From positions 69,944 to 133,943 of the forward strand of contig CAZHVT010000001.1 of NCBI GenBank assembly GCA_964536205.1: 64,000 bases of DNA. Reading direction: 5' to 3'. Below, piece after piece: positions 3,900 to 61,980 of the stretch; the stretch's first letter is position 1; the number at the start of each line of letters is the position of its first letter. The position numbers were made by a program, and so were the translations under genes. Under the pieces are notes generated by a model, which saw only the letters and a list, made by a program, of their open reading frames with translations, had not been told where the DNA came from and searched no databases. Source of the DNA: an uncultured Gammaproteobacteria bacterium (lineage in GTDB: Bacteria > Patescibacteriota > Patescibacteriia > Magasanikbacterales > GCA-002688135).

Positions 3900-6077
3900 T
3901 TGCGCTGCATCATGCATATGCCTAAATCAGAACCCTCATTGCCAGCTCAAGATGAGTCTAAAAAAGATTTTTTAGGTTTGGATTCTGCGCATGTAGATGA
4001 AATGCCAGAACCTTCCGCGCTTGATGAAGTGATGGAATATGGAAAGCGAGAAGGCGATGCCTTGTCGCGTCGACATGAGAAAAAGCGTCTTGGTATTGAG
4101 GGTGAAACGCCGATGCTGGATGAAGTGATGGCAGATGCGCAGCGTGAGGGTGATGCGTTGTCAGATAATATTGAGTCAAATAATCGCGCAGCTGCTATTA
4201 AGCGCTTAATGAAGGTTGATCGGAATTTGTTACGAGAGTTGCGTGAGAGTGGTGAATTGGATGAAATGAGTTTGCATGAGATTAATCAGTTGGGCATTGA
4301 GACTGGATTAGAGAAAGATCGTCTCACAGGAGAACGTAATGAAGCAGCTGCGAGATATGCTGCGGCGCGAGATATGGGTTTTCATAAAACGCCAGATGAT
4401 AAGTATCGAGATCGTGGGGACATGGCTGAAGAAAAGTGGAGAGCGCTTGTTGATGTAATAAACCAATTGAATGGGCGTAAAATTGGATGGTTTTCGAAAA
4501 TTAAGTTTAATGGGAAGATTGGAGGTTTTGATGGTTCGATGAGAGGTTTAGAAATGAAAAATGAATTAAAAGCTGAAGCATATTTTGAAAAGAAGAATGA
4601 TGAAGAGGGTTTGTCTTTACTTGATGAGTACGATCGATTGTTGGGTGAGTTTCGAGCTCATTCTCATGATCTGACTTCAGGTGGTGAGGTTGATCGTATT
4701 GGTGTAGCTTCGGCAGAACAGTTTGATATTGGAAAGAATGAAGGAGCAGAAGCATATCGAGACGAAGCATTTGATGATGCTGCTTTTGATGCGGCGCCCG
4801 CAACTATTCCTGAAATGCCGGCTGTTATTGCGGAGGAAACGCCAACGGTTCGTGAAATGCCTTCTCTGGAGGGTGAGTTGAGTGATGCAGATATTGTTGA
4901 GGAGACACCTACTGTGCAAGAGATGCCTCGTGCTGAAACGCTGCCATATGTGCCAGTAGATGAAACTCCAACACTAGCAGATGTGGAGCCTGCGAATTCA
5001 AGATTTGAGACAGCTGAAGCTGAAATGGAATTTGCGACGTCTGAAACATTAGCCGCGGTTCCTACAGAAGCTGTGACTGAAAGAGATATGGAGGCTGCGA
5101 AATTGCCGAAAGCAACAGAGGAGTATGTTGATTACGCAGCGGTTGAGCGAGGTGCAAAAAAACGAGATAAAGAGGCGGGGGCACAGGCTGCGGAACGCGC
5201 TTATCAGAGTATTCGTAGAGAATCTCAATATCTGATTAATAGCATTCCGATGGATGAGGATGCGAAAAAAATGTTGATGAATGATACATATTTTGCTCAT
5301 CGTGTGCAGGATCATAAAGATGCTGCCGGAAATGTTGATCTTGCGAGTGTCGTTTCTGAATATCAGGATTATTTGGATGAGTGGTTTGATTTTCATGGTT
5401 TGCTTAATTCGCGAGGAAAATTACGAGGTAGTGCTGTGCGAAATGCAATAAAGGAAGGTATTAGTCGCGAGCGTATTGATGCGCAATATAAGTTGTTGGT
5501 ACAGATGGATGATTTGCTTGATTATGCGACAGGAAACTCTGTTTCAGTTGCGAATATGCCTGGTGCTTCTGGTGGGCGGCGTGTTGCGGCTGTGCAACGT
5601 AGAGCTGCTGAAGTTTCTCCTCCGCCTTTTGATCCTCCAACTGAAATTCCTGCTCGTGAAATTCCGCCACCACTTCCGGGTCAAAAAGAAACTGTTGAAT
5701 CAATGGAGGTTGCAGATGAGGATTTGCATGAGGTGCTTTCAACTGACGAGGTTATTGATTTGATTGATTCTTTGGCCGTTGGTGAGGAGAATAAAATAGC
5801 GTTGTATGATCGTAGATTTATGGATGCGGTTACAGATGCGAATGGTGACGTATTGTCAGCATCAGGTGCGGCGCTTGCTGAAGTTGAGGGTAATCTTGAG
5901 GCACTAGGAGTGAAGTTTTCAAAGGACGGTACTATCGATGGACGTTCAGCTCGAAAGTTTGCAGACACTGATGATTACAAATTGTACGCCGCTTTGAAAG
6001 AGCTGCAGCAGTCAATGTTGCATAGCCGTTCGCCTGGAAAAGCTGAAGAGATGAGAGGGCGATTTAACGCTGGATAG
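3900..6077 (+). CDS. Large acidic hypothetical protein with internal repeats (LDEVMEYGKREGDALS / LDEVMADAQREGDALS, and E-T-P-T-V-x-E-M-P repeats)
   Basis: 725-aa ORF rich in D/E with no TM segment. Followed by a rho-independent terminator near 6096-6122. No recognisable catalytic motif. The start could instead be one of the nearby downstream ATGs. Confidence 0.5.
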   Translation: MRCIMHMPKSEPSLPAQDESKKDFLGLDSAHVDEMPEPSALDEVMEYGKREGDALSRRHEKKRLGIEGETPMLDEVMADAQREGDALSDNIESNNRAAAIKRLMKVDRNLLRELRESGELDEMSLHEINQLGIETGLEKDRLTGERNEAAARYAAARDMGFHKTPDDKYRDRGDMAEEKWRALVDVINQLNGRKIGWFSKIKFNGKIGGFDGSMRGLEMKNELKAEAYFEKKNDEEGLSLLDEYDRLLGEFRAHSHDLTSGGEVDRIGVASAEQFDIGKNEGAEAYRDEAFDDAAFDAAPATIPEMPAVIAEETPTVREMPSLEGELSDADIVEETPTVQEMPRAETLPYVPVDETPTLADVEPANSRFETAEAEMEFATSETLAAVPTEAVTERDMEAAKLPKATEEYVDYAAVERGAKKRDKEAGAQAAERAYQSIRRESQYLINSIPMDEDAKKMLMNDTYFAHRVQDHKDAAGNVDLASVVSEYQDYLDEWFDFHGLLNSRGKLRGSAVRNAIKEGISRERIDAQYKLLVQMDDLLDYATGNSVSVANMPGASGGRRVAAVQRRAAEVSPPPFDPPTEIPAREIPPPLPGQKETVESMEVADEDLHEVLSTDEVIDLIDSLAVGEENKIALYDRRFMDAVTDANGDVLSASGAALAEVEGNLEALGVKFSKDGTIDGRSARKFADTDDYKLYAALKELQQSMLHSRSPGKAEEMRGRFNAG

Positions 6078-6947: not shown

Positions 6948-7032
6948 TGCCGAGCGTAGCGAGTCATTCCGTAGTCGTACGGAATCTATGTTGGGGGTGG
7001 TGTTGTGATGATGGATCCCGTACGACTACAGG
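6948..7032. repeat. Family-C paired hairpins (gtcattccgtagtcgtacggaatc ... ggatcccgtacgactacagg)
   Basis: Related copies at 213-242, 38843-38932, 49392-49470 and 58022-58075. All share the word cat[tc]cc(g)...gggatg. Confidence 0.6.
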
Positions 7033-7113
7033 ATGATAATGTATGCATATTGGTTGACATTTGGTGAGAATCTTGGTATTCTTTGGTTATCGAACTTTTT
7101 GGGAGGCTTTGTT

Positions 7114-10852: not shown

Positions 10853-11395
10853 ATGAAGCAATACGAATACTTTTGCGTGGTTTCGCAAAGTTTAACAGAA
10901 GATGAAGCGACGACCTTGCTTGGGACTATCAAGCAGGCGCTTTTAGATGTTGGAGCAGAAAATGTAGCTGACCAAAATATGGGAAAGCAGCGTTTGGCGT
11001 ATCCATTTCCTGGTAAACAGGCTCATGGAACATTTGCTTTGATCGAATTTGATATTGATCCTGAAAAGGTTGCGGAATTTAAAGAGAAGATTCGTTTTGT
11101 GAAAGGTATTGCGCGATCTGTTGTGCGAGTGCGTGCTCCAAAGAAAGAGGTGAAGGAGCGCACAGGTACTGCATCAACATTTGTTCCAGTTGCTACTTCA
11201 GAAGTTACAAAGGCTATTGAGAAAGATCGTGAAACAGTTGTTGCTCCGGATATTGCGATTCGAACTGCAACTTCGGATGCACCCACAGCTCCGGTTGCAG
11301 AAGTTAAGGAAGAGAAGAAGCAGTTGACGCAGGAAGAACTTGATAAGCGAATTGATGAGTTACTTAATGAGGAAGTTACTCCAGAAAATCTTTAA
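10853..11395 (+). CDS. rpsF: 30S ribosomal protein S6 with C-terminal extension
   Basis: N-terminal about 95 aa (MKQYEYFCVV...LAYPFPGKQAHGTFALIEFD...) matches S6. Operon context rpsF-ssb-rpsR. Confidence 0.8.
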   Translation: MKQYEYFCVVSQSLTEDEATTLLGTIKQALLDVGAENVADQNMGKQRLAYPFPGKQAHGTFALIEFDIDPEKVAEFKEKIRFVKGIARSVVRVRAPKKEVKERTGTASTFVPVATSEVTKAIEKDRETVVAPDIAIRTATSDAPTAPVAEVKEEKKQLTQEELDKRIDELLNEEVTPENL

Positions 11396-11397
11396 AA

Positions 11398-11471
11398 GCG
11401 TTTAGCTTTTAGCGTTTAGCGATTAGTTTCATTTTTAAACGCTAAACGCTATACGCTAAAACCTAGTTTCT
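11398..11471 (+). repeat. Family-A intercistronic palindromic element (rpsF-ssb spacer): hairpin arms agcgtttagcg.../...cgctaaacgct, then a conserved ...acgctaaaacctagtttct leader directly before the ATG
   Basis: Near-identical copies at 12021-12092, 13413-13478 and 44430-44495, and in reverse orientation at 54335-54372. Each ends 0-3 nt before a start codon that lacks an AGGAGG SD. Confidence 0.7.
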
Positions 11472-12020
11472 ATGGCTTATTGCTTGAACAAAGCGCAGGT
11501 GATCGGGAATTTGACTCGAGATCCGGAAATGCGTCAATTGCCTTCGGGGCAATCTGTAGCGAATTTTGCAGTTGCTACGAATCGGTCGTTTACTGATAAA
11601 GAAGGTAATAAGCGTGATGATGTTGAATTTCATAATATAGTTGTGTGGGGGAAATTGGCAGAGATTTGTAATCAGTATTTGAATAAAGGTAAGAAGGTGT
11701 ATATTGATGGACGTTTGCAGACGCGCACATGGGATGGTCAGGATGGTGTGAGTCGTTCACGAACGGAGATTATTGCAGAGAATTTGATTATGTTGGATCG
11801 CGCTGGGCAGTCGTCTGGAAATTATCAGCAGAATCAGAATCAAGGAAATTATTCACAAAACAATCAATCACAAAATTTTCAATCTAAACCAGCAGCGCCG
11901 CGAGCTGAAGAGCAGCTTCCAACCATCTCATTGGATGACCCTGAACCACAAGGGTATCAGGGCAAGGGAGAGCCAGCGCCGCAGGGAGATAAAATCAGAA
12001 TCGAAGATATACCTTTTTAG
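11472..12020 (+). CDS. ssb: Single-stranded DNA-binding protein
   Basis: OB-fold N-terminus (NLTRDPEMRQLPSGQSVANFAVATNRSF...VVWGKLAEI), Gln/Asn-rich linker, acidic C-terminal tail ending DDIPF. Confidence 0.85.
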   Translation: MAYCLNKAQVIGNLTRDPEMRQLPSGQSVANFAVATNRSFTDKEGNKRDDVEFHNIVVWGKLAEICNQYLNKGKKVYIDGRLQTRTWDGQDGVSRSRTEIIAENLIMLDRAGQSSGNYQQNQNQGNYSQNNQSQNFQSKPAAPRAEEQLPTISLDDPEPQGYQGKGEPAPQGDKIRIEDIPF

Positions 12021-12092
12021 CTTTTAGCGGTTAGCGATCAGCGATTAGTTTCATTTCTAAACGCTTAACGCTATACGCTAATCCCTAATTCT
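12021..12092 (+). repeat. Family-A intercistronic element (ssb-rpsR spacer)
   Basis: gcttttagcggttagcgatcagcgattagtttcatttctaaacgcttaacgctatacgctaatccctaattctATG. Confidence 0.7.
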
Positions 12093-12308
12093 ATGGCATT
12101 AAAGAAAACCAAAATTTGTCACTTCTGTGTCAATCAAAAAGATATCGACTATAAAGATGCTGCAACATTGCAGAAGTTTTTGACGCCTTATAAATCTATT
12201 GTAGCGAAGAAGCGAACGGGGAATTGTGCGTTGCATCAGAGAAAAGTTACGAAAGCTATTAAGCAAGCACGAATTATGGGCTTGTTGCCTTTTGTTGGAG
12301 GACGGTAG
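12093..12308 (+). CDS. rpsR: 30S ribosomal protein S18
   Basis: 71 aa. CHFC...DYKDAATLQKFLTPYKSIVAKKRTGNCALHQRKVTKAIKQARIMGLLPF is a canonical S18 sequence. Confidence 0.85.
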   Translation: MALKKTKICHFCVNQKDIDYKDAATLQKFLTPYKSIVAKKRTGNCALHQRKVTKAIKQARIMGLLPFVGGR

Positions 12309-12321
12309 TACAGAATGACCA

Positions 12322-12445
12322 ATTTTCAAATTACAAATAACAAACAAAATTCAAAATTCAAAAAAGCGCGATGTTTGAAGTTTGGAAATTGAAGTTTGGG
12401 ATTTGTTTGCAAATTGTTATTTGGTACTTGTGATTTTCATCCGTA
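12322..12445. repeat. Family-E AT-rich long palindrome (caaattacaaataacaaacaaaattcaaa ... tttgggatttgtttgcaaattgttatttgg)
   Basis: Homologous copies at 21392-21516 and 28412-28540. Confidence 0.6.
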
Positions 12446-12449
12446 TGTT

Positions 12450-13412
12450 ATGACCTGGAAGAGGCTAGAAAATAATGATCTAAAAGAAAATTTGAAGAAA
12501 CGTGCCCAATATGTCCGGATGATTCGGGCTTTTTTTGATTCTGATGGATTTGTTGAAGTGATGACACCGCGGATGGTGAGGTTGGCTGGGCAGGAGCCAT
12601 ATTTAGATCCGTTTGTGACGAGTGTTACTGATGCGCAAAATAATTCGTATCAAGCTCGTTTGATTACATCTCCTGAATATTCGTGTAAGAAATTATTGGC
12701 GTCTGGTTTTGAGAAGATTTATGATATGGGGCCGTGTTTTCGCAATCATGAATCTTTTGGGGGTTTGCATAATCCGGAATTTACGATGTTGGAGTGGTAT
12801 CGAGCTGATGCGGATTACACTGATTTGATGGATGATGTTGATGCATTGTTGTCGAAATTGAAGGGTGAGAGGGTTGCGTGTGAGAGAGTTTCGATGAGAG
12901 AGTTATGGAAGAAATATTGTGGTATTGATTTGCATGATTTGCTCGATCGTAAATCTTTGGTAAGATTTGTGAACAATGCACAGCCGGATGATCGATATGA
13001 GGATTTATTTTACAGAGTTTTTTTGAAAGATATTGAGCCGAAGTTGATTGCACCGACGTTGGTGTATGATTATCCTGCGCAGATGGCGGCATTGGCGAAG
13101 TTGAAGGATGAGCATTATGCAGAACGTGTTGAGTTATATATTGATGGGATTGAAATTGCAAATGGTTTTTCTGAGTTGATTGATGGGGATGAGCAGAAAA
13201 AGCGATTGGAGGAAGAGCAGGAATTGCGAGGAGTATTAGGGAGAGATGTGTTTGATATTGATAATGATTTTCTTGATGCATTGTCATCGATGAAACCTTC
13301 TGCTGGGATTGCGCTTGGAGTTGATCGATTGGTAATGTGGTTATTGGGAACAAAAAAAATTGAGGATGTTTTGGCTTTTCCTGCTGGTTCATTATTTGGA
13401 GAGAGCGTTTAG
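12450..13412 (+). CDS. epmA: EF-P lysine aminoacylase (truncated class II lysyl-tRNA synthetase paralog, EpmA/GenX/PoxA)
   Basis: Class II aaRS motifs (ITSPEYSCKKLL, FRNHESFGGLHNPEFTMLEWY, GIALGVDRLVM) without an anticodon-binding domain. Sits directly upstream of efp. Start moved to the internal Met (MTWKRLENN) because the upstream part of the ORF overlaps a palindromic repeat. Confidence 0.75.
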   Translation: MTWKRLENNDLKENLKKRAQYVRMIRAFFDSDGFVEVMTPRMVRLAGQEPYLDPFVTSVTDAQNNSYQARLITSPEYSCKKLLASGFEKIYDMGPCFRNHESFGGLHNPEFTMLEWYRADADYTDLMDDVDALLSKLKGERVACERVSMRELWKKYCGIDLHDLLDRKSLVRFVNNAQPDDRYEDLFYRVFLKDIEPKLIAPTLVYDYPAQMAALAKLKDEHYAERVELYIDGIEIANGFSELIDGDEQKKRLEEEQELRGVLGRDVFDIDNDFLDALSSMKPSAGIALGVDRLVMWLLGTKKIEDVLAFPAGSLFGESV

Positions 13413-13478
13413 CTTTTAGCGTTTAGCGATTAGTTTCATTTCTAAGCGCTAAATGCTATACGCTAATCCCTAGTTTCT
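13413..13478 (+). repeat. Family-A intercistronic element (epmA-efp spacer)
   Basis: agcttttagcgtttagcgattagtttcatttctaagcgctaaatgctatacgctaatccctagtttctATG. Confidence 0.7.
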
Positions 13479-14042
13479 ATGGCAAAAATTGCAGATATTA
13501 GTAATGGACGTGTGTTGGATTATCGCGGAGGGTTGTATGAAGTTGTGGAATTTCAGAGTATTAGTCCTGGGAAAGGATCGGCGTTTTGTCGAACGCGCAT
13601 GAAACATTTGGAAACTGGGAAAGTTTTGGAGGTGAATTTTAAGGATAATGATGATTTTGAGGTGAAGAGTGTGCAACGAAAGAATATGCAATATTTGTAT
13701 AATGATGGTTCTGGCTTGGCGTTTATGGATAATACAACATATGAACAAGTGAGTGTTCCGGCGGCAGCTGTGGGGAATGCAGTGAAATTTTTACATGAAG
13801 GTCAGGAGGTTGTGGTGGTGATGGATGGAGAACGAGCGTTATCTGTTTCATTGCCAAAGAAAATTCGAATGAAGGTTGTGAAGGCTCCGGATGCAGTGAA
13901 GGGGGATTCTTCTGGGGGGAATGTGACGAAGGATGTGACGTTAGAAAATGGTACGATTGTGAAAGCGCCTTTGTTTATTAAGGAAGGGGAAATGATTGTT
14001 GTTTCTACAGAATCTGGTGATTACGTTGAGAGGGCGAAATAG
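13479..14042 (+). CDS. efp: Translation elongation factor P
   Basis: 187 aa with KOW-like N-domain and conserved loop SPGKGSAF carrying the modifiable Lys. Typical EF-P length. Confidence 0.9.
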   Translation: MAKIADISNGRVLDYRGGLYEVVEFQSISPGKGSAFCRTRMKHLETGKVLEVNFKDNDDFEVKSVQRKNMQYLYNDGSGLAFMDNTTYEQVSVPAAAVGNAVKFLHEGQEVVVVMDGERALSVSLPKKIRMKVVKAPDAVKGDSSGGNVTKDVTLENGTIVKAPLFIKEGEMIVVSTESGDYVERAK

Positions 14043-14118
14043 TTTTGAGTTAGCAGTTTTGAGTTTTGGGAGAAAGCGTTTCGGCGCTTTTTTTTATCGT
14101 GTAAAATTGCTAAAATGA

Positions 14119-20577: not shown

Positions 20578-20706
20578 TAAAATAGTAAAGTGTAATGAGT
20601 AATGCGTAAAGCGTAAGTAAGCAGTGTCGCCGAAGGCGACGTATTAATAGATCGCCTTCGGCAATACCGTTGCCCTCATTACTCTTTACGCATTACTCTT
20701 TACGAT
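20578..20706. repeat. Family-B palindromic element between recA and the RodZ-like gene
   Basis: agtaaagtgtaatgagtaatgcgtaaagcgtaagtaagcagtgtcgccgaaggcgacg...cgccttcggcaataccgttgccctcattactctttacgcattactctttacg. Confidence 0.65.
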
Positions 20707-20709
20707 GTT

Positions 20710-21390
20710 TTATAATTGTGTCGCTTCTAAATTTCGCTGTGCACTTTGTGTATCTTCCGGCATGTAGAGCACTGACCGTGTCGCATTAGCTTTTCCGCCT
20801 CGTTTTGATGTTGCTTCGATTATGATTTCATTCAATCCTCGTTTGAGATGAATGGTTTCTTCGAAATGTCCTTGTTTGTCCAGATTTGTTTTTAAGCCAT
20901 TTAATGTAACGGTTGATTCTGGTTCTGTTGATCCCGCGATGGTGATGGCACTGTGTGATGTTTCAAAATTTTCTGCAGGATCGGTTATGGTGAGTGCTGG
21001 TGGGCCGATCATGGCGTGAACTTCCATGCCGAGGTATAGCGCGAGGGAAAGCACAGCTCCGGTTGCTAATAATGTTCTCATGACATTTGGGATGGAAAAT
21101 GATCTTTGTTTTTTTCTGATTTTTGGTGCTTCGTGCTTGTGTTCAATTTGATACATAACATCCTCCAATTCGATTTCATCAATTCCACATGTGCGCGCGT
21201 ATTCTTTGACGATTGTTTTTCTGGCGCTTCCTGCTGGAAGTTTGTCGTATTCACAATTTTCAAGTGCATGAATATGGGTCAGGGCGATGCCTGAAGCCTG
21301 CGAACATTTTTTAATTGATATACCGGAGCGCTCACGAATTTGTTTGAGGCGAACGCACAGTTTATTTTTTTTCATAGCAGGAATTATCAA
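20710..21390 (-). CDS. HTH (XRE-type) domain bitopic membrane protein, RodZ-like
   Basis: N-terminal HTH (LKQIRERSGISIKKCSQASGIALTHIHALE), a single TM helix (LLATGAVLSLALYL) and an extracytoplasmic C-terminal domain. This architecture resembles the cytoskeletal protein RodZ. Confidence 0.5.
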   Translation of the reverse strand: MIIPAMKKNKLCVRLKQIRERSGISIKKCSQASGIALTHIHALENCEYDKLPAGSARKTIVKEYARTCGIDEIELEDVMYQIEHKHEAPKIRKKQRSFSIPNVMRTLLATGAVLSLALYLGMEVHAMIGPPALTITDPAENFETSHSAITIAGSTEPESTVTLNGLKTNLDKQGHFEETIHLKRGLNEIIIEATSKRGGKANATRSVLYMPEDTQSAQRNLEATQL

Positions 21391-21391
21391 T

Positions 21392-21516
21392 TTCCAAATT
21401 CCAATTTACAAACAAATTTTAAATTTCAAATCTCAAGCGTCTGGTTGCTGAGTTTAGGATTTGAATTTTAGAATTTGAACTTTGTTTGTAAATTGTTATT
21501 TGGAGTTTGGTCATTG
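21392..21516. repeat. Family-E AT-rich long palindrome between ftsK and the RodZ-like gene
   Basis: ccaaattccaatttacaaacaaattttaaatttcaaatctcaa ... ttgaactttgtttgtaaattgttatttggagtttgg. Confidence 0.6.
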
Positions 21517-27348: not shown

Positions 27349-27354
27349 GGGTTT

Positions 27355-27500
27355 GGTATCTAGTATTTGGTATTTAGTATCTGGTATGCAGCTGCCTTTG
27401 AATGGCTTGATCTTAACATCGATACCTAATATACTCAACACTAACCACGTAATCACGAAGTGATATACTAAATACTAGATACCAAATACCATATACCAAT
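27355..27500. repeat. Family-F long palindrome (ggtatctagtatttggtatttagtatctggtat ... atactaaatactagataccaaatacc) between corA and galU
   Basis: Arms of about 30 bp separated by about 75 bp. The corA ORF-track N-terminus runs into it. Confidence 0.6.
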
Positions 27501-28411: not shown

Positions 28412-28540
28412 AATAAATAACAATTACCAAATAACAATTTACAAACAAATCTAAAATTCAAATCTCAAACTCGACAATCGGACGTTTGGAGTTTGGAATT
28501 TAAGATTTGTTTGGTACTTGAGATTTGGTGATTGAGATTT
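28412..28540. repeat. Family-E AT-rich long palindrome between galU and the solute-binding lipoprotein gene
   Basis: ccaaataacaatttacaaacaaatctaaaattcaaatctcaaactcg ... gtttggaatttaagatttgtttggtacttgagatttgg. Confidence 0.6.
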
Positions 28541-36112: not shown

Positions 36113-36517
36113 ATGATGAGAACAATAACGTTTTCTATTATTGCGAGTTTGTTTTTGGTGTTGCCTATGGCAGCGCAAGATAAGCCATCTCCTGTTGATA
36201 CTACTCCTGAAGCTGCGTCTGGGAAGTATGGATTGGATGCGACGGTTGGTGCTGCTGCACAAGAAGGAGTTCCTATTCCAAATACAGACAAAAAAGCAAC
36301 TGGAATTATTGGTAGTGTGCTTGGTGGAGTTTTATCAATGATTGGAACGATATATTTCTTTCTGATGTTATATGCTGGATTTACGTGGATGACTGCACGA
36401 GGTAAGAGTGAATTGATTGATAAATCTAAGAACATTATGATTCATGCAACGGTTGGTGCGGTGTTGGTTGCTGGGTCGTTTGTGATTGTGAAGTTTGTGA
36501 TTGATGCGCTGGGTTAG
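36113..36517 (+). CDS. TrbC/VirB2-type pilin-like protein, paralog 7
   Basis: Signal peptide. C-terminus YFFLMLYAGFTWMTARGKSEL plus a second TM. Confidence 0.65.
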   Translation: MMRTITFSIIASLFLVLPMAAQDKPSPVDTTPEAASGKYGLDATVGAAAQEGVPIPNTDKKATGIIGSVLGGVLSMIGTIYFFLMLYAGFTWMTARGKSELIDKSKNIMIHATVGAVLVAGSFVIVKFVIDALG

Positions 36518-36585
36518 CGTAATGCGTAAAGCGTAAAGCGTAAGTGGTTTCCCGCATTACGCATTACGTTTTACTCTTTACTAAC
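36518..36585. repeat. Family-B-like short palindrome (gcgtaatgcgtaaagcgtaaagcgtaag...cattacgcattacg) between pilin paralogs 7 and 8
   Basis: Shares the taaagcgtaa word with the other family-B copies. Confidence 0.5.
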
Positions 36586-36589
36586 ATAT

Positions 36590-36991
36590 ATGACATTATC
36601 GATAACCAAAAAACAGGTGGGAGCTTTTTTTGTGTGTTTGATGCTTTCGGGTATGCTTTTTGCGCCTCGGCTTACGCAGGCAAAGCTTGGTTTGGATGAG
36701 GCTAAGAATGCAGCAGATAAATCTGGTGGTTTTAATACGAATGAAGAGGAGGCTGGCGTTGCTGCTATTGCAGGAAAGATCATTCAAGCGCTTATTAGTT
36801 TGCTTGGAATTATATTTATTGGTTTGACGGTGTATGCAGGATTTTTGTGGATGACAGCTCGTGGAGAGACTGAACAGGTTGATCGATCTAAGAAAATGTT
36901 GACTCAAGGGGTGATTGGGATGGCGATTATGTTGGCTGCGTGGGCGATTACTAATTTTGTGTTAAGTCGGTTGATTGATGCAACCGGATAA
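36590..36991 (+). CDS. TrbC/VirB2-type pilin-like protein, paralog 8
   Basis: Signal peptide. C-terminus FIGLTVYAGFLWMTARGETEQ plus a second TM. Confidence 0.65.
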   Translation: MTLSITKKQVGAFFVCLMLSGMLFAPRLTQAKLGLDEAKNAADKSGGFNTNEEEAGVAAIAGKIIQALISLLGIIFIGLTVYAGFLWMTARGETEQVDRSKKMLTQGVIGMAIMLAAWAITNFVLSRLIDATG

Positions 36992-38814: not shown

Positions 38815-38975
38815 GATTAGTATCTAGTATCTAGTATTTTGCGAAGTAGTTAGCATGTCATCCCGGCGCAGGCCGGGATCCATTGTATGTGGTAGACATG
38901 GATCCCGGCCTGCGCCGGGATGACGTTCTATTAACTAAACCGCATACAAGATACTAGATACATCATCCGGCTGTC
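38815..38975. repeat. Nested palindrome: outer family-F arms (gtatctagtatctagtat ... gatactagatac) enclosing an inner perfect family-C inverted repeat (gtcatcccggcgcaggccgggatcc ... ggatcccggcctgcgccgggatgac)
   Basis: Forms the right border of the GC-rich lipoprotein island. A second family-F copy without the inner element lies at 27355-27500. Confidence 0.7.
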
Positions 38976-40861: not shown

Positions 40862-40992
40862 TATCATTGTTGTCAGCTTGTAGCTGGTAGCTTGTGGCTT
40901 GTAGGGAATGTGTCGCCAAGGCGACGATCTATATGTCAAACATTGTTTGACTCATTTCTAAAAGCTAAAAGCTAAAAGCTAAAAGCTAACTG
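40862..40992. repeat. Family-B-like palindrome (gcttgtagc arms around gtcgccaaggcgac) followed by a 4x agctaaa tandem heptamer, in the rpoB leader
   Basis: cagcttgtagctggtagcttgtggcttgtagggaatgtgtcgccaaggcgacg ... aaaagctaaaagctaaaagctaaaagctaac. Confidence 0.55.
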
Positions 40993-40995
40993 TGT

Positions 40996-44427: not shown

Positions 44428-44429
44428 AG

Positions 44430-44495
44430 CGATTAGCGTTTAGCGTTTAGCGATTAGTCTAAACGAAAACTAAACGCTTTACGCTAAACGCTCAA
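44430..44495 (+). repeat. Family-A intercistronic element (rpoB-rpoC spacer)
   Basis: agcgattagcgtttagcgtttagcgattagtctaaacgaaaactaaacgctttacgctaaacgctcaaaaaaatATG. Confidence 0.65.
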
Positions 44496-44501
44496 AAAAA
44501 T

Positions 44502-49391: not shown

Positions 49392-49470
49392 TGTTCGTTG
49401 TCATTCCGTAGTCGTACGGAATCCATGTGTTGTGTGGTGCAGTCTTGATGGATCCCGGCCTGCGCCGGGA
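49392..49470. repeat. Family-C paired hairpins between yebC and ruvC
   Basis: gtcattccgtagtcgtacggaatccatgtgttgtgtggtgcagtcttgatggatcccggcctgcgccgggatgat. Confidence 0.6.
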
Positions 49471-49486
49471 TGATATGTTTTTTTCT

Positions 49487-54331: not shown

Positions 54332-54334
54332 AAA

Positions 54335-54372
54335 ATTAGCGTTTAGGTTTTAGCGGTTAGCGTTTAGTTTAA
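54335..54372 (-). repeat. Family-A element (partial) immediately upstream of the NYN-domain gene start, in gene-matching orientation
   Basis: Minus strand reads ...ctaaacgctaaccgctaaaacctaaacgctaattttATG. Confidence 0.5.
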
Positions 54373-58021: not shown

Positions 58022-58075
58022 ATGACGGATCCCGTACGACTACGGGATGACAAAGGATCGCGAGAAATCGCGGTT
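58022..58075. repeat. Family-C hairpin (ggatcccgtacgactacgggatgac) plus a second short hairpin (gatcgcgagaaatcgcggtttttt, likely the epimerase terminator)
   Basis: Sequence-identical core to the right hairpin at 7014-7032. Confidence 0.55.
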
Positions 58076-59835: not shown

Positions 59836-59911
59836 GGCGGCCGTGGTGTAATGGTTAGCACAGCAGTTTGTGGTACTGCTAGCGGCGGTTCAATTCCGCT
59901 CGGTCGCCCCA
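59836..59911 (+). tRNA. tRNA-His (anticodon GTG) with encoded G-1 and 3' CCA
   Basis: Manual fold: G-1, acceptor gcggccg/cggtcgc, D-arm ggtg-taatggtta-gcac, anticodon arm gcagt-ttgtggt-actgc, T-arm ggcgg-ttcaatt-ccgct, discriminator C, then CCA. Coordinates +/-1. Confidence 0.8.
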
Positions 59912-59975
59912 TCGGAAAACTCACCTTTTGGTGGGTTTTTCGTTTGGAATAAAAAATCCCGCACTGAAGTGCGGG
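59885..59975 (+). repeat. Repeat D0: authentic tRNA-His 3' half plus downstream conserved box (aactcaccttttggtgggtttttcgtttggaataaaaaa) and terminator hairpin. Prototype of the degenerate copies D1-D4.
   Basis: ggttcaattccgctcggtcgccccatcggaaaactcaccttttggtgggtttttcgtttggaataaaaaatcccgcactgaagtgcgggg. Confidence 0.7.
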
Positions 59976-59981
59976 GTGACG

Positions 59982-60461
59982 TTACACGTCGCCGGGGCAG
60001 TACGCAGTGACTGATACCCGAGACAGTGCCTCGTGCAGGAGCTCGAAGCGACGCGATTGTGTGTGAAAAGGTGTCAGTGTGAAACAGTAGGGCGTCATGG
60101 AAACACCCTTGTAGGCGAGTTTGGTGGCGATCCGAAGACACTCCCATTCCTCGTCGTACAGTACGTCGGTACCAAGACCGGCGCGAGTCACGTCGTCATC
60201 CCATGAAAGGAATCCGAGGTGTGTCTCATTTGTAACTGCTGACGCATTTTTCACGGTGAGATTATCATCCACGACAACGAAGTTGCCGGGAGCAGTCTCG
60301 ATCACGTCGATCCATCGATCCTCTGGGCAAGGCGCTGCGCTGGGATGCAGAAATGCATGACTAGCGCGGCGAGAATGAACGTCGTTTGCACGAAGATAGA
60401 TACGGTGAGTTTGCTTCATGACAGGTGCTCCATTGTGGTTTTCTTGGATATCTATCCCCAC
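59982..60461 (-). CDS. Hypothetical protein (159 aa) in a GC-rich (about 55%) segment, first cassette after tRNA-His
   Basis: ORF with a rho-independent terminator (rc of 59940-59975) downstream. Strong compositional contrast with the flanks. No motif. Confidence 0.4.
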   Translation of the reverse strand: MGIDIQENHNGAPVMKQTHRIYLRANDVHSRRASHAFLHPSAAPCPEDRWIDVIETAPGNFVVVDDNLTVKNASAVTNETHLGFLSWDDDVTRAGLGTDVLYDEEWECLRIATKLAYKGVSMTPYCFTLTPFHTQSRRFELLHEALSRVSVTAYCPGDV

Positions 60462-60559
60462 GGAACGTCACCTTATTTTTCTTAGTGCGAAATTAATGTA
60501 TCATTTTTGTTTAACATTGTCAACTCCTAAGCGCATGTATTTGCTTTTCCTCTGGTATT

Positions 60560-60745
60560 CCAGTTCGAACATCATACGCTACATGGCCCCATCAAAAAAC
60601 ACTCGTGAAAGCGAGTGTTTTTTTCTGCAAAGTTGGTGTCTGCAAACCACACCATTGTTTATTGTTTACGCTACGTGGCCCAGCGAACAACTCACCTTTT
60701 GGTGGGTTTTTCGTTTGGAATAAAAAATCTCGCCTTGGCGAGATT
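60560..60745 (+). repeat. Repeat D1 (split): agttcgaacatcatacgctacatggcccca [about 75-bp insert carrying a hairpin terminator and one arm of a 41-bp inverted repeat] cgctacgtggcccagcgaacaactcaccttttggtgggtttttcgtttggaataaaaaa plus hairpin
   Basis: Degenerate copy of the tRNA-His T-arm/acceptor 3' half and downstream box. Compare with D0. Confidence 0.6.
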
Positions 60746-60750
60746 GAGTG

Positions 60751-61326
60751 TTATGCGGTTGCCGCAATGCCGACTTCCATCCCCGAACACCTGCCTCTGT
60801 TGGTGAATTGTAACTCACATATAGCCTCTTGGCTCTCGAGCAGTTCCATGATCGCAGTACAGAATTTTTCGAGGTCTGATAGTGAGTCAAAGTGATCCCA
60901 CAAACCGTTTGCATCATATTCGATCGATGGATCGGATGCTGGTGAGCATGCCAGTCCTTCTGTTTTATAGTTTTCGCCGTATCCTTGATCAAACAGACGT
61001 TGCATCTCGGAAGGAAATAATACCTTGATTCTCTTCACTGCGAATGCGTCGGTAACTGATATGACCACTATTTCATTCACTTGAATGACTCTGCGTGTTG
61101 CTCGAATTTTTTTGGAGCAATTATATAGAGGATACAACCGTACATCCATATCACGTAGTGGAATTTGTTCGGACAGAGTTACCTCAACTTTAAATGACCA
61201 TCTTGTTGTTCTGCGATTTTGCTTGAGTCCTTTGAACCACATGAAAATATCCCGCAAGAATGACTCGACTCTTTCTTTTTTTTGATCATAAATTGCCAAT
61301 CCAAGTTGTGCCTGGTTCATCTGCAA
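60751..61326 (-). CDS. Hypothetical protein (191 aa), cassette 2 of the tRNA-His-linked array
   Basis: ORF bounded by degenerate tRNA-His 3'-half repeats. Its C-terminal codons run into the repeat/terminator, so the stop position is uncertain. Confidence 0.4.
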   Translation of the reverse strand: MQMNQAQLGLAIYDQKKERVESFLRDIFMWFKGLKQNRRTTRWSFKVEVTLSEQIPLRDMDVRLYPLYNCSKKIRATRRVIQVNEIVVISVTDAFAVKRIKVLFPSEMQRLFDQGYGENYKTEGLACSPASDPSIEYDANGLWDHFDSLSDLEKFCTAIMELLESQEAICELQFTNRGRCSGMEVGIAATA

Positions 61327-61427
61327 GCTCCTCTGTTTGTAAGTTAATTTTAAAAGATCTTTGTTATCCTATCATTGGTTTTTGTGTTTGTCAATGGTTG
61401 ATGTACATTGGTTTAAATTATCAATAA

Positions 61428-61525
61428 ATTAGTTCGAATTTTATGCGCTAGACGGCCCAGCGAAGAACTCACCTTTTGGTGGGTTTTTCGTTTGGAATAA
61501 AAAAACGCCGCGTAGGCGTTCTTAC
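61428..61525 (+). repeat. Repeat D2: agttcgaattttatgcgctagacggcccagcgaagaactcaccttttggtgggtttttcgtttggaataaaaaa plus hairpin (acgccgcgtaggcgt)
   Basis: Contiguous degenerate copy of the tRNA-His 3' half plus downstream box. Confidence 0.65.
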
Positions 61526-61529
61526 TGGT

Positions 61530-61886
61530 TCATTCAGATGTTGTCAATTGAAATTCAATTCTTCGCATGAAAAAGGTTTTTGTAGGAGACAGTCCTATGC
61601 AGTCAAACATTTCGATTGTTTCTGGATCCAGGCTTAAGCCTAATTTCCGTGCTTTGTATTTAAAGCGTTCAAGTACAAAACGTGCTTTTTTATCTAGTGC
61701 GTCGGTGTATCGTGCTGTGAAGGTGAAAAAGTGTAGTTCTTCACACAGTTCTTCTGGTGGTGTTGAATCCCAACTTCTCGTCATCTCTTTAATTTGATCT
61801 TTTTGTGCTTGGTGGCTCAAATCGTATTCCTCCTTGCTGTCAAAAGAATCTGGTGAGAATTTAGCATAATTTGGTTTGATTGTCAA
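61530..61886 (-). CDS. Hypothetical protein (118 aa), cassette 3
   Basis: ORF between repeat copies at about 61428-61525 and about 61904-61980. No motif. Confidence 0.4.
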   Translation of the reverse strand: MTIKPNYAKFSPDSFDSKEEYDLSHQAQKDQIKEMTRSWDSTPPEELCEELHFFTFTARYTDALDKKARFVLERFKYKARKLGLSLDPETIEMFDCIGLSPTKTFFMRRIEFQLTTSE

Positions 61887-61903
61887 TAGTTTGTAGTGAT
61901 TTT

Positions 61904-61980
61904 AGTTCGAACATCATACGCTAAGCGGCCCCAGATGAAATAACTCCCAAAAGGAGTTGTTTTGTTTTAGAAAAAATTGA
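61904..61980 (+). repeat. Repeat D3: agttcgaacatcatacgctaagcggcccca then a different hairpin terminator (aactcccaaaaggagtt plus T-run)
   Basis: 5' part homologous to D1/D2/D4. The downstream box is replaced. Confidence 0.55.

Follow-up and report, generated by a model that had tools for sequence, protein, structure and literature searches.

Family A is a hairpin-forming repeat found in three spacers of the rpsF-ssb-rpsR-epmA-efp gene block in the DNA analyzed here, a 64,000-nucleotide (nt) stretch of contig CAZHVT010000001.1 from an uncultured member of the Patescibacteriota (the window). On balance, the evidence leans modestly towards family A being a local, recently amplified sub-family of fast-evolving, self-propagating palindromic repeats built from 7-nt units (heptamers). 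The initial annotation of this DNA had taken the repeat for a conserved stem-loop plus leader that stands in for a Shine-Dalgarno (SD) sequence.

A 43-nt core occurs three times with no more than two mismatches (11417-11459, 12039-12081, and 13424-13466), where 0 matches are expected from shuffled sequences, and the full copies of about 80 nt (11397-11476, 12019-12098, and 13404-13483) are 79 to 94% identical to each other. All three stop exactly at an ATG, that of ssb (11472), rpsR (12093), or efp (13479); Pfam confirmed the identities of the S6, SSB, S18, EpmA-like class II synthetase, EF-P, and NYN proteins of the window. The arms are made of tandem 7-nt units (AGCGTTT / AAACGCT), with AGCGTTT repeated 4.3 times in the left arm and its complement making up the right arm, and Tandem Repeats Finder reported a period of 7, with 3.3 to 4.3 copies per arm, for every arm. 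The supposed leader is formed by the outermost, decayed part of the 3' array (CTATACG CTAATCC CTAGTTT CT, directly followed by ATG). Copy 1 (11397..11471, forward strand) lies in the rpsF-ssb spacer behind the rpsF TAA (11393-11395); its 5' array, (AGCGTTT)x4 at 11397-11426, is followed by the loop GTTTCATTTTT and by AAACGCT-type units that run up to the ssb ATG, with a predicted folding energy of -27 kcal/mol (z = -4.1). In copy 2 (12018..12092, forward strand; z = -4.8), which lies in the ssb-rpsR spacer, the first TAG of the 5' array is the stop codon of ssb (12018-12020), and in copy 3 (13404..13478, forward strand; -32.4 kcal/mol, z = -5.3), between epmA and efp, the epmA frame enters the element and ends at a TAG at 13410-13412. 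Two independent assemblies of the same strain (L002 and L005) begin at the equivalent of window position 13412, and thus break within copy 3, which indicates that these repeats fragment metagenome assemblies.

Two further copies had been proposed, upstream of rpoC and, in matching orientation, upstream of a minus-strand NYN gene. The element in the rpoB-rpoC spacer (44428..44501, forward strand; z = -4.6) is a diverged TAGCGnn hairpin that shares only the arms; it has another loop, lacks the family A leader, and is separated from the rpoC ATG (44502) by an A-rich tail of 9 nt. The NYN-domain gene does have an array immediately 5' of its ATG, a solo 3'-type array on the minus strand (54332..54372; CTAAACG CTAACCG CTAAAAC CTAAACG CTAATTTT), but this single arm has no partner and gave no hairpin on folding (z = -0.18). 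The region from 11398 to 13478 and the other proposed copies therefore resolve into three near-identical copies (ssb, rpsR, and efp), one diverged hairpin (rpoC), and one single arm (NYN). The hairpins predicted for all three copies of family A and for the rpoC copy fall between -27 and -32 kcal/mol, with z scores of -4.1 to -5.3, and 0 of 200 shuffles were as stable. In these hairpins the upstream stop codon lies at or within the 5' stem base and the AUG lies 9 to 14 nt past the 3' stem base; across the window, the arrays finish 0 to 9 nt ahead of the ATG. No further copy was found in an additional 10 kb of the source contig.

Such arrays are common in this genome. The window contains 28 arrays of period 7, compared with 8 or fewer of any other period, and 31 of the 33 arrays of period 7 or 14 are intergenic. 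Of the 46 intergenic regions that are 30 nt or longer, 18 contain period-7 arrays; the arrays are built from many different units and mostly occur as inverted pairs. Given this frequency and variety, family A is one dialect of a general feature of the genome.

Comparison with relatives shows that most of these copies are young. The source contig is patescibacterial and derives from JGI metagenome 3300009375. The nearest SSB and RpoC homologues are labeled Patescibacteria, Uhrbacteria, Magasanikbacteria, or Parcubacteria, and the rpsF-ssb-rpsR-epmA-efp gene order is kept in relatives whose SSB is 86% (L123 and L124), 72% (L125 and L126), or 61% (L127) identical. Between ssb and rpsR, the element is absent from L123, L125, and L127, and the spacers in the relatives measure only 3, 4, and 8 nt (TAA ATT ATG; TAA ATCT ATG; TAG AAAAATAT ATG). 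The epmA-efp spacer of the relatives is 2 to 3 nt long (3 nt in L125), except that L123 carries a different small GC-rich palindrome there. The rpsF-ssb spacer measures 9 nt in L127 and 28 nt in L125, and in L123 it holds a 126-nt composite TAGCTTT/CTAAAAG hairpin. In two relatives with an RpoC N terminus 64 to 67% identical to that of the window, the rpoB-rpoC spacer is 17 and 44 nt long, with no hairpin and no SD. The short spacers of the relatives represent the ancestral types (TAAATTATG and TAGTATATG), the counterparts of which in the window are 72 and 66 nt long. The copies 5' of rpsR, efp, and rpoC are thus lineage-specific gains, and their exact placement before the ATG is a consequence of insertion into spacers of only a few nt.

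These comparisons also bear on the proposed replacement of an SD. No SD was found in the relatives' short spacers at these junctions, and it follows that nothing replaced one; the survey of related genomes that had been put forward as a check on the proposal went against it. Nor do most other genes in the window have textbook AGGAGG sites, since any 4-nt SD-like match within 20 nt was found for only about 15 of the 58 curated genes.

Turnover can be faster still. L129 and L130/L131 encode identical SSB proteins and differ by 1 mismatch in 6.3 kb, yet the rpsF-ssb spacer holds a 111-nt (ACAAATn)n hairpin in L129 and measures 18 nt in L130/L131. Among contigs of the same strain as the window (L001 to L006 and L128), the elements are identical and no unit-number polymorphism was found. 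Pairs of elements less than 3 kb apart have an identity of 0.76 to 0.92; for distant copies within one genome the median is 0.75 and the maximum 0.96, compared with a median of 0.62 between genomes. Copies from the same genome, which often differ in their loops and unit order, are therefore more alike than copies from different genomes, suggesting propagation or homogenization within genomes. In these two respects, presence/absence polymorphism between strains and likeness within genomes, the second suggestion of the initial annotation, a mobile intergenic element, fits the data.

One way to account for mobility is a transposase acting on a miniature element, either of the REPIN/RAYT type or a miniature inverted-repeat transposable element (MITE), that inserts at stop-codon-like TA(A/G) targets. 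The palindromic, multicopy, and extragenic nature of the repeats, their presence/absence polymorphism, and the near-identity of some distant copies in one genome would all be expected, and the L129 element (L129:2890-3000; compare L130:2983-3000) is bounded by the termini CCACAAAT/ATTTGTGG with TAA on each flank. However, although the L129 element has this possible TAA...TAA flank, no clear target duplication surrounds the three family A copies. Many copies within a genome share little but their unit vocabulary, no transposase was found beside the window elements among the 10 of about 58 window proteins scanned against Pfam, and the IS110-type gene near L129/L130 is present in both alleles. 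Heptamer-periodic arms are, in addition, not a feature of known REPs or MITEs. We hold a transposase-driven element of this kind to be quite improbable. The loop of the L129 hairpin contains TGCTATAAT, an extended -10-like motif. Identity with an integron attC site was also discarded: GTTRRRY is not matched by the core, and, by what is generally known of integrons, the essential flanking genes are not cassettes.

To place family A in a wider context, the pattern AGCGNTTAG-N(4-24)-CTAANCGCTNWAYGCT was searched for in one genome per species. At least 116 loci matched, against a random expectation of about 6 (our own estimate, under uniform base composition). The matches listed come mainly from Omnitrophota and Patescibacteria, and also from Planctomycetes, Chloroflexi, cyanobacteria (including metagenome-assembled genomes of Calothrix and Trichodesmium), Bacteroidetes, and others; a related element is carried by a cultured isolate, Chitinophaga niastensis DSM 24859 (L013). 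The common architecture is 5'-(TAGCGnn)n - loop - (nnCGCTA)n-3', and the 124 elements recovered have a median length of 66 nt and 4 + 4 units, with mostly TT, TA, GT, AT, or GA at the variable positions. In the fetched loci as a whole, 446 tandem arrays have a period of 7, versus 88 or fewer for any other period. Among adjacent array pairs, a TAGCG array lies 5' of a CGCTA array in 89 cases and the reverse order occurs in 0, although this result is weak because the search seeds imposed that order; a viral contig collection gave 1 match in the observed arm order and 0 in the reverse, too few to judge polarity.

The position of these elements was compared with that of genes called by open reading frame (ORF) heuristics in the fetched loci. 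Where genes were called on both sides, 75 elements lie between co-directional, 12 between convergent, and 12 between divergent genes, and the background of adjacent genes in the same loci is 75.7% co-directional, 14.3% convergent, and 10% divergent (p = 0.71). The initial annotation had named random orientation and position as the outcome that would point to a mobile element with no regulatory role, and the elements do occur at background proportions. Furthermore, gene ends (112 element sides) and gene starts (108 sides) are abutted equally often, because the elements fill whole, originally tiny spacers; the insertion preference for start codons that had been ascribed to the element is therefore only apparent. 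Stop codons are concentrated between -10 and +5 nt from the element edge, and the first ATG lies 0 to 10 nt past the array on 36 of 104 start sides. The array's own TAG terminates 37 of about 110 upstream genes, and TAG accounts for 52% of these upstream stops, compared with 26% in the background. When the genes that follow were tabulated across the fetched loci, a step that the initial annotation had recommended, they proved functionally diverse: their 104 proteins represent 133 Pfam families, of which only SSB, the commonest (4 of 104), and S18 (2) recurred.

Two broader rules were tried and rejected. All-frame stops do not explain heptamer arrays in general: of 178 arrays without a TAGCG-like core, 141 have a stop on either strand, against 131 ± 4.5 expected, which is a weak excess. 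Likewise, an A/C-rich arm is not always the one beside the ATG, as a translational enhancer would require, since the CAAATTn/TTTGnAA family has its G/T-rich arm in that position.

For tests of constraint at the RNA level, the co-directional elements were read in the sense strand. Stem mismatches showed no excess of G·U (30 G·U versus 42 A·C), complementarity at the variable arm positions gave no evidence of covariation (0.60, compared with 0.59 to 0.60 after shuffling), and core variants showed no strand asymmetry, with 16 TAGGG units in the 5' arm and 16 CCCTA units in the 3' arm. The idea that TAGGG units mark the sense strand was rejected on the latter count. In the absence of all three signals, the pairing is attributed to the shared 5-nt core, and there is no sign of selection for a particular folded sense-strand RNA. 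The marks of a conserved structured cis-regulatory RNA, namely compensatory changes, tolerance of G·U pairs, and conservation at orthologous sites, were thus lacking. Searches against Rfam 15 with gathering and E-value thresholds found no family at the elements: the best subthreshold scores were 23 to 25 bits, against thresholds of 64 to 90, and only two tRNAs in the window passed the gathering threshold. A scan for promoters and terminators found none at any copy, and the elements do not have the GC-rich hairpin and U-tract of an intrinsic terminator. A true terminator does lie 3' of efp (14041-14095), where a classical intrinsic terminator, GAAAGCGTTTCGGCGCTTTTTTTT, comes after a solo (AGTTTTG)x4 array; the genes from rpsF to efp therefore appear to form a single transcription unit.

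These results have to be set against the possibility that the hairpin is a selected RNA device, either coupling translation of the SD-less downstream gene to termination of the upstream gene or acting as an RNase III or exonuclease-blocking site that tunes the levels of S6, SSB, S18, EF-P, and the beta/beta' subunits. Several observations would suit such a device. The hairpins are significantly stable and have a long imperfect stem; the stop codon and the AUG flank the stem as described above; and there is no terminator tail. In addition, several lineages have heptamer hairpins of different families on the flanks of ssb, possibly by convergence, and in three genomes the two hairpins that flank ssb are near-identical to each other. 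On the other hand, the elements are missing in close relatives with the same operon, and they show neither covariation nor G·U excess nor strand asymmetry. Their frequency in convergent and divergent spacers is that of intergenic regions in general, the genes downstream are diverse, and the NYN copy has no hairpin. We therefore consider a selected device unlikely, and the conserved processing, standby, or coupling role first proposed for the element is not upheld by these data.

A different function would be served if the TAGCG/CGCUA heptamers were an array of binding sites for a sequence-specific binder of single-stranded or duplex nucleic acid (for example, a cold-shock, S1, or KH-type protein acting on the mRNA leader, or a DNA-binding factor) and the hairpin were a by-product, an idea that follows MacGregor's proposal for TAACTGA repeats (PMC4679880). 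Beyond that published analogy, the five core positions are constant in every unit across phyla while the other two vary independently in the two arms, and solo arrays stand immediately 5' of start codons. In some genomes TAGGG is paired with CGCTA, leaving a G·G mismatch in the core, so that pairing is not strictly kept. However, the core conservation was imposed by the search pattern, and relatives chosen without that bias use other units, such as TAGCTTT, ACAAATn, TCTAAAA, and TTGACAA. The full strand symmetry counts against a signal read in the mRNA sense, and no candidate protein was identified; we regard a binding-site array as quite improbable. The genomes in which TAGCGTT is mixed with TAGGGTT units (L007, L014, L017, L027, L052, and L119) use a heptamer of the plant telomere type (TTTAGGG), and as their opposite arm stays CGCTA, the G·G mismatch runs systematically through the stem.

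If family A is a self-propagating heptamer repeat, its history could be as follows. Units would be gained and lost, probably by slippage, and whole elements would be copied to near and far gene junctions, for instance through template switching, through gene conversion, or by a transposase. Elements appear and vanish between very close strains. An entering arm carries TAG in all three frames and would thereby close an interrupted upstream gene within a few codons. As there is no U-tract and no promoter, transcription should read through. The upstream stop and the downstream AUG lie at the base of one predicted RNA helix, which a ribosome ending the upstream gene would melt; the next gene might then be started without an SD, as in relatives with a stop-start distance of 2 to 10 nt. 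With stop and AUG at one helix base, SD-independent coupling, which is the rule at these junctions in the relatives, may persist after insertion. Both this retained coupling and the copying mechanism are our inference, whereas the repeat structure, the hairpin potential and its geometry, the recent gain, the background-like distribution, the lack of constraint at the RNA level, and the absence of an SD in the relatives are direct results; a coupling role for the hairpin geometry is possible as a secondary effect.

Several points weigh against this account. Neither a transposase, among the 10 of about 58 window proteins scanned against Pfam, nor a clear target-site duplication or an intermediate of transposition was observed. 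The class statistics come from loci picked with a pattern that fixed the core and the arm order, and 74 kb of the source genome were covered. In different phyla, TAGCG recurs as the 5-nt core and the other two positions float, a pattern that would not be expected under pure hairpin drift. Finally, at least six Patescibacteria lineages have heptamer hairpins beside ssb, often with differing unit families, which hints at selection at that operon. A bolder interpretation, which we advance only tentatively and think improbable, is that inverted TAGCGnn arrays form a distinct cross-phylum class of actively propagating intergenic repeats, found chiefly in Patescibacteria and Omnitrophota, with its own generator or heptamer-reading protein, and that they provide SD-independent coupling by bringing the upstream stop and the downstream AUG to one helix base. 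If so, their repeated capture around ssb would be explained.

Other heptamer elements of the window resemble family A in design. A composite heptamer hairpin (40870..40995, forward strand; -49.4 kcal/mol, z = -4.9) lies 5' of the rpoB ATG (40996), with arms (AGCTTGT)n ... (CTAAAAG)x4 and two small nested loop hairpins; its architecture recurs in the relative L123 at rpsF-ssb and rpsR-epmA. The rpsR-epmA spacer of the window holds a heptamer-array hairpin, (CAAATTn)n ... (TTTGnAA)n (12314..12431, forward strand), with sister copies at 21382-21503 and 28415-28540. A heptamer hairpin of the form (AGCGTAA)x4 ... (CGCATTA)n (36516..36589, forward strand) reaches the ATG at 36590, and similar inverted arrays are found at 2336-2451, 20585-20704, and 27352-27499.

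In other Patescibacteria, ssb-rpsR or epmA-efp gaps contain arrays of other units (L009:1280-1440, L122:1304-1470, and L132:2955-3516 and 4880-4918), including AAATCAA/TTGATTT, AGTTAAA/AAAACTA, TCTAAAA, and TTGACAA; some of these arrays are solo, and the efp-proximal array of L132 overlaps the C terminus of epmA. In L128 (694-1345), a strain otherwise identical to the window, a premature stop within the Q/N-rich linker shortens ssb to 148 amino acids (aa), and the resulting 205-nt "spacer" still codes for the acidic C-terminal tail. At L136:4501-8526, rpoC was called as two abutting ORFs of 538 and 802 aa, and many RpoC homologues of this group are labeled partial, with 350 to 600 aa (P0121-P0240); this pattern may stem from a split rpoC or else from frameshifts or contig breaks at a single place.

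The window also carries further repeats. Small GC-rich palindromes of the GTCATTCCGTAGTCGTACGGAATC and ATGGATCCCGGCCTGCGCCGGGATGA types form a second family (214-239, 6963-7038, 38898-38923, 49400-49475, and 58025-58050). The same family is present in L123 (3519-3560 and 4121-4277), where one copy sits in the epmA-efp gap, the place of family A in the window, and where an ATG within it was miscalled as the efp start by the gene caller. Between 30148 and 37430, at least nine paralogous small genes share a conserved stretch, TGGTGGATTT..TGGATGAC (repeat families D2, D5, D6, and D8), that encodes a peptide of about GGFxWMT; they seem to encode a tandemly arranged family of small proteins of a membrane or pilin-like kind. 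A 67-nt repeat with a terminator-like hairpin end, CTCACCTTTTGGTGGGTTTTTCG, occurs three times at a spacing of 771 to 777 nt (59890-61504 and 60557-61973); it marks tandem small-gene modules, and its first copy starts inside tRNA-His (59837-59911).

For annotation, these results imply that the elements should be treated as suppliers of stop codons and breakers of assemblies and not as riboswitch-like leaders. The downstream genes are SD-less with or without an element, which bears on SD-independent translation in these bacteria. Any mechanism will have to account for why the period is 7 nt, why the 5-nt core is conserved, and why the arm order is fixed, and Chitinophaga niastensis DSM 24859 offers a cultured entry point for experiments.

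No description of TAGCG-type inverted heptamer arrays was found in the searchable literature, searches with the literal repeat sequence returned primer or vector matches only, and searches on repeats in Patescibacteria returned nothing relevant. Several known systems are nevertheless reminiscent of these elements. The Correia elements of Neisseria, the ERIC sequences of enterobacteria, and the mycobacterial MIRUs are small palindromic or intercistronic repeats that are cotranscribed in operon mRNAs and can alter their processing or stability; MIRUs lie between cistrons and are in contact with the stop and start codons on either side. As these repeats are generally known, the present elements resemble them as small repeats between genes. 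Correia and ERIC elements have defined terminal repeats and target duplications, and MIRUs carry small ORFs that bridge the flanking genes; unlike all of these, the present elements are heptamer-periodic and carry stops in every frame, and no duplication was detected at them.

The short tandemly repeated repetitive (STRR) sequences of cyanobacteria are heptamers repeated in tandem between genes, in many cases close to start codons or promoters, in which a period of 7 is favored and for which slippage has been proposed as the origin. The present elements are likewise intergenic tandem heptamers of period 7 near starts. They are built from other units, and the inverted-array hairpin is not part of the general description of STRR sequences. 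Heptanucleotide STRR sequences (Mazel 1990) and long simple-sequence repeats with 7-nt units (Mrazek 2007) are cited in the work on TAACTGA repeats (PMC4679880), and heptamers in Nostoc have been addressed in a preprint (bioRxiv 10.1101/2022.06.06.494920).

REPINs consist of two REPs of about 20 to 25 nt with a family-wide consensus and are linked to RAYT (Bertels & Rainey 2011, PMC3116915). Like REPINs, the present elements are short extragenic palindromic inverted doublets that are capable of forming hairpins in single-stranded DNA or mRNA and that evolve by replication within genomes (PMC3116915); unlike those of REPINs, their arms are 7-nt arrays of variable length with a 5-nt core. Both kinds are scattered over extragenic space, but no RAYT was seen here, in 74 kb of the source genome and with 10 of about 58 window proteins scanned against Pfam.

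The closest parallel is with the TAACTGA repeats of Beggiatoaceae, cyanobacteria, and Bacteroidetes (MacGregor 2015, PMC4679880), which lie within a few nt of start codons that mostly have no SD, within ribosomal-protein operons and before pnp and a gene for an rpoC-like RNA polymerase subunit; almost all of the sets described are direct repeats (169 direct and 1 indirect). Both types have tandem 7-nt units near SD-less starts, stop codons within the unit, and a patchy spread across phyla. Unlike the TAACTGA repeats, the elements described here have the unit TAGCGnn/nnCGCTA, are paired as inverted hairpins, fill the whole stop-to-start spacer, and touch gene ends as often as gene starts. Given the different unit and the inverted architecture, they are not members of the TAACTGA family. 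Ever since the STRR sequences, and later the TAACTGA repeats of Beggiatoa, heptanucleotide repeats have been known to occur beside start codons in bacteria, and they are still unexplained; to these the present elements add a new form, inverted and hairpin-forming, that is common in small-genome, mostly uncultured groups and that lies amid essential genes, such as those of rpsF/ssb/rpsR and rpoB/rpoC.

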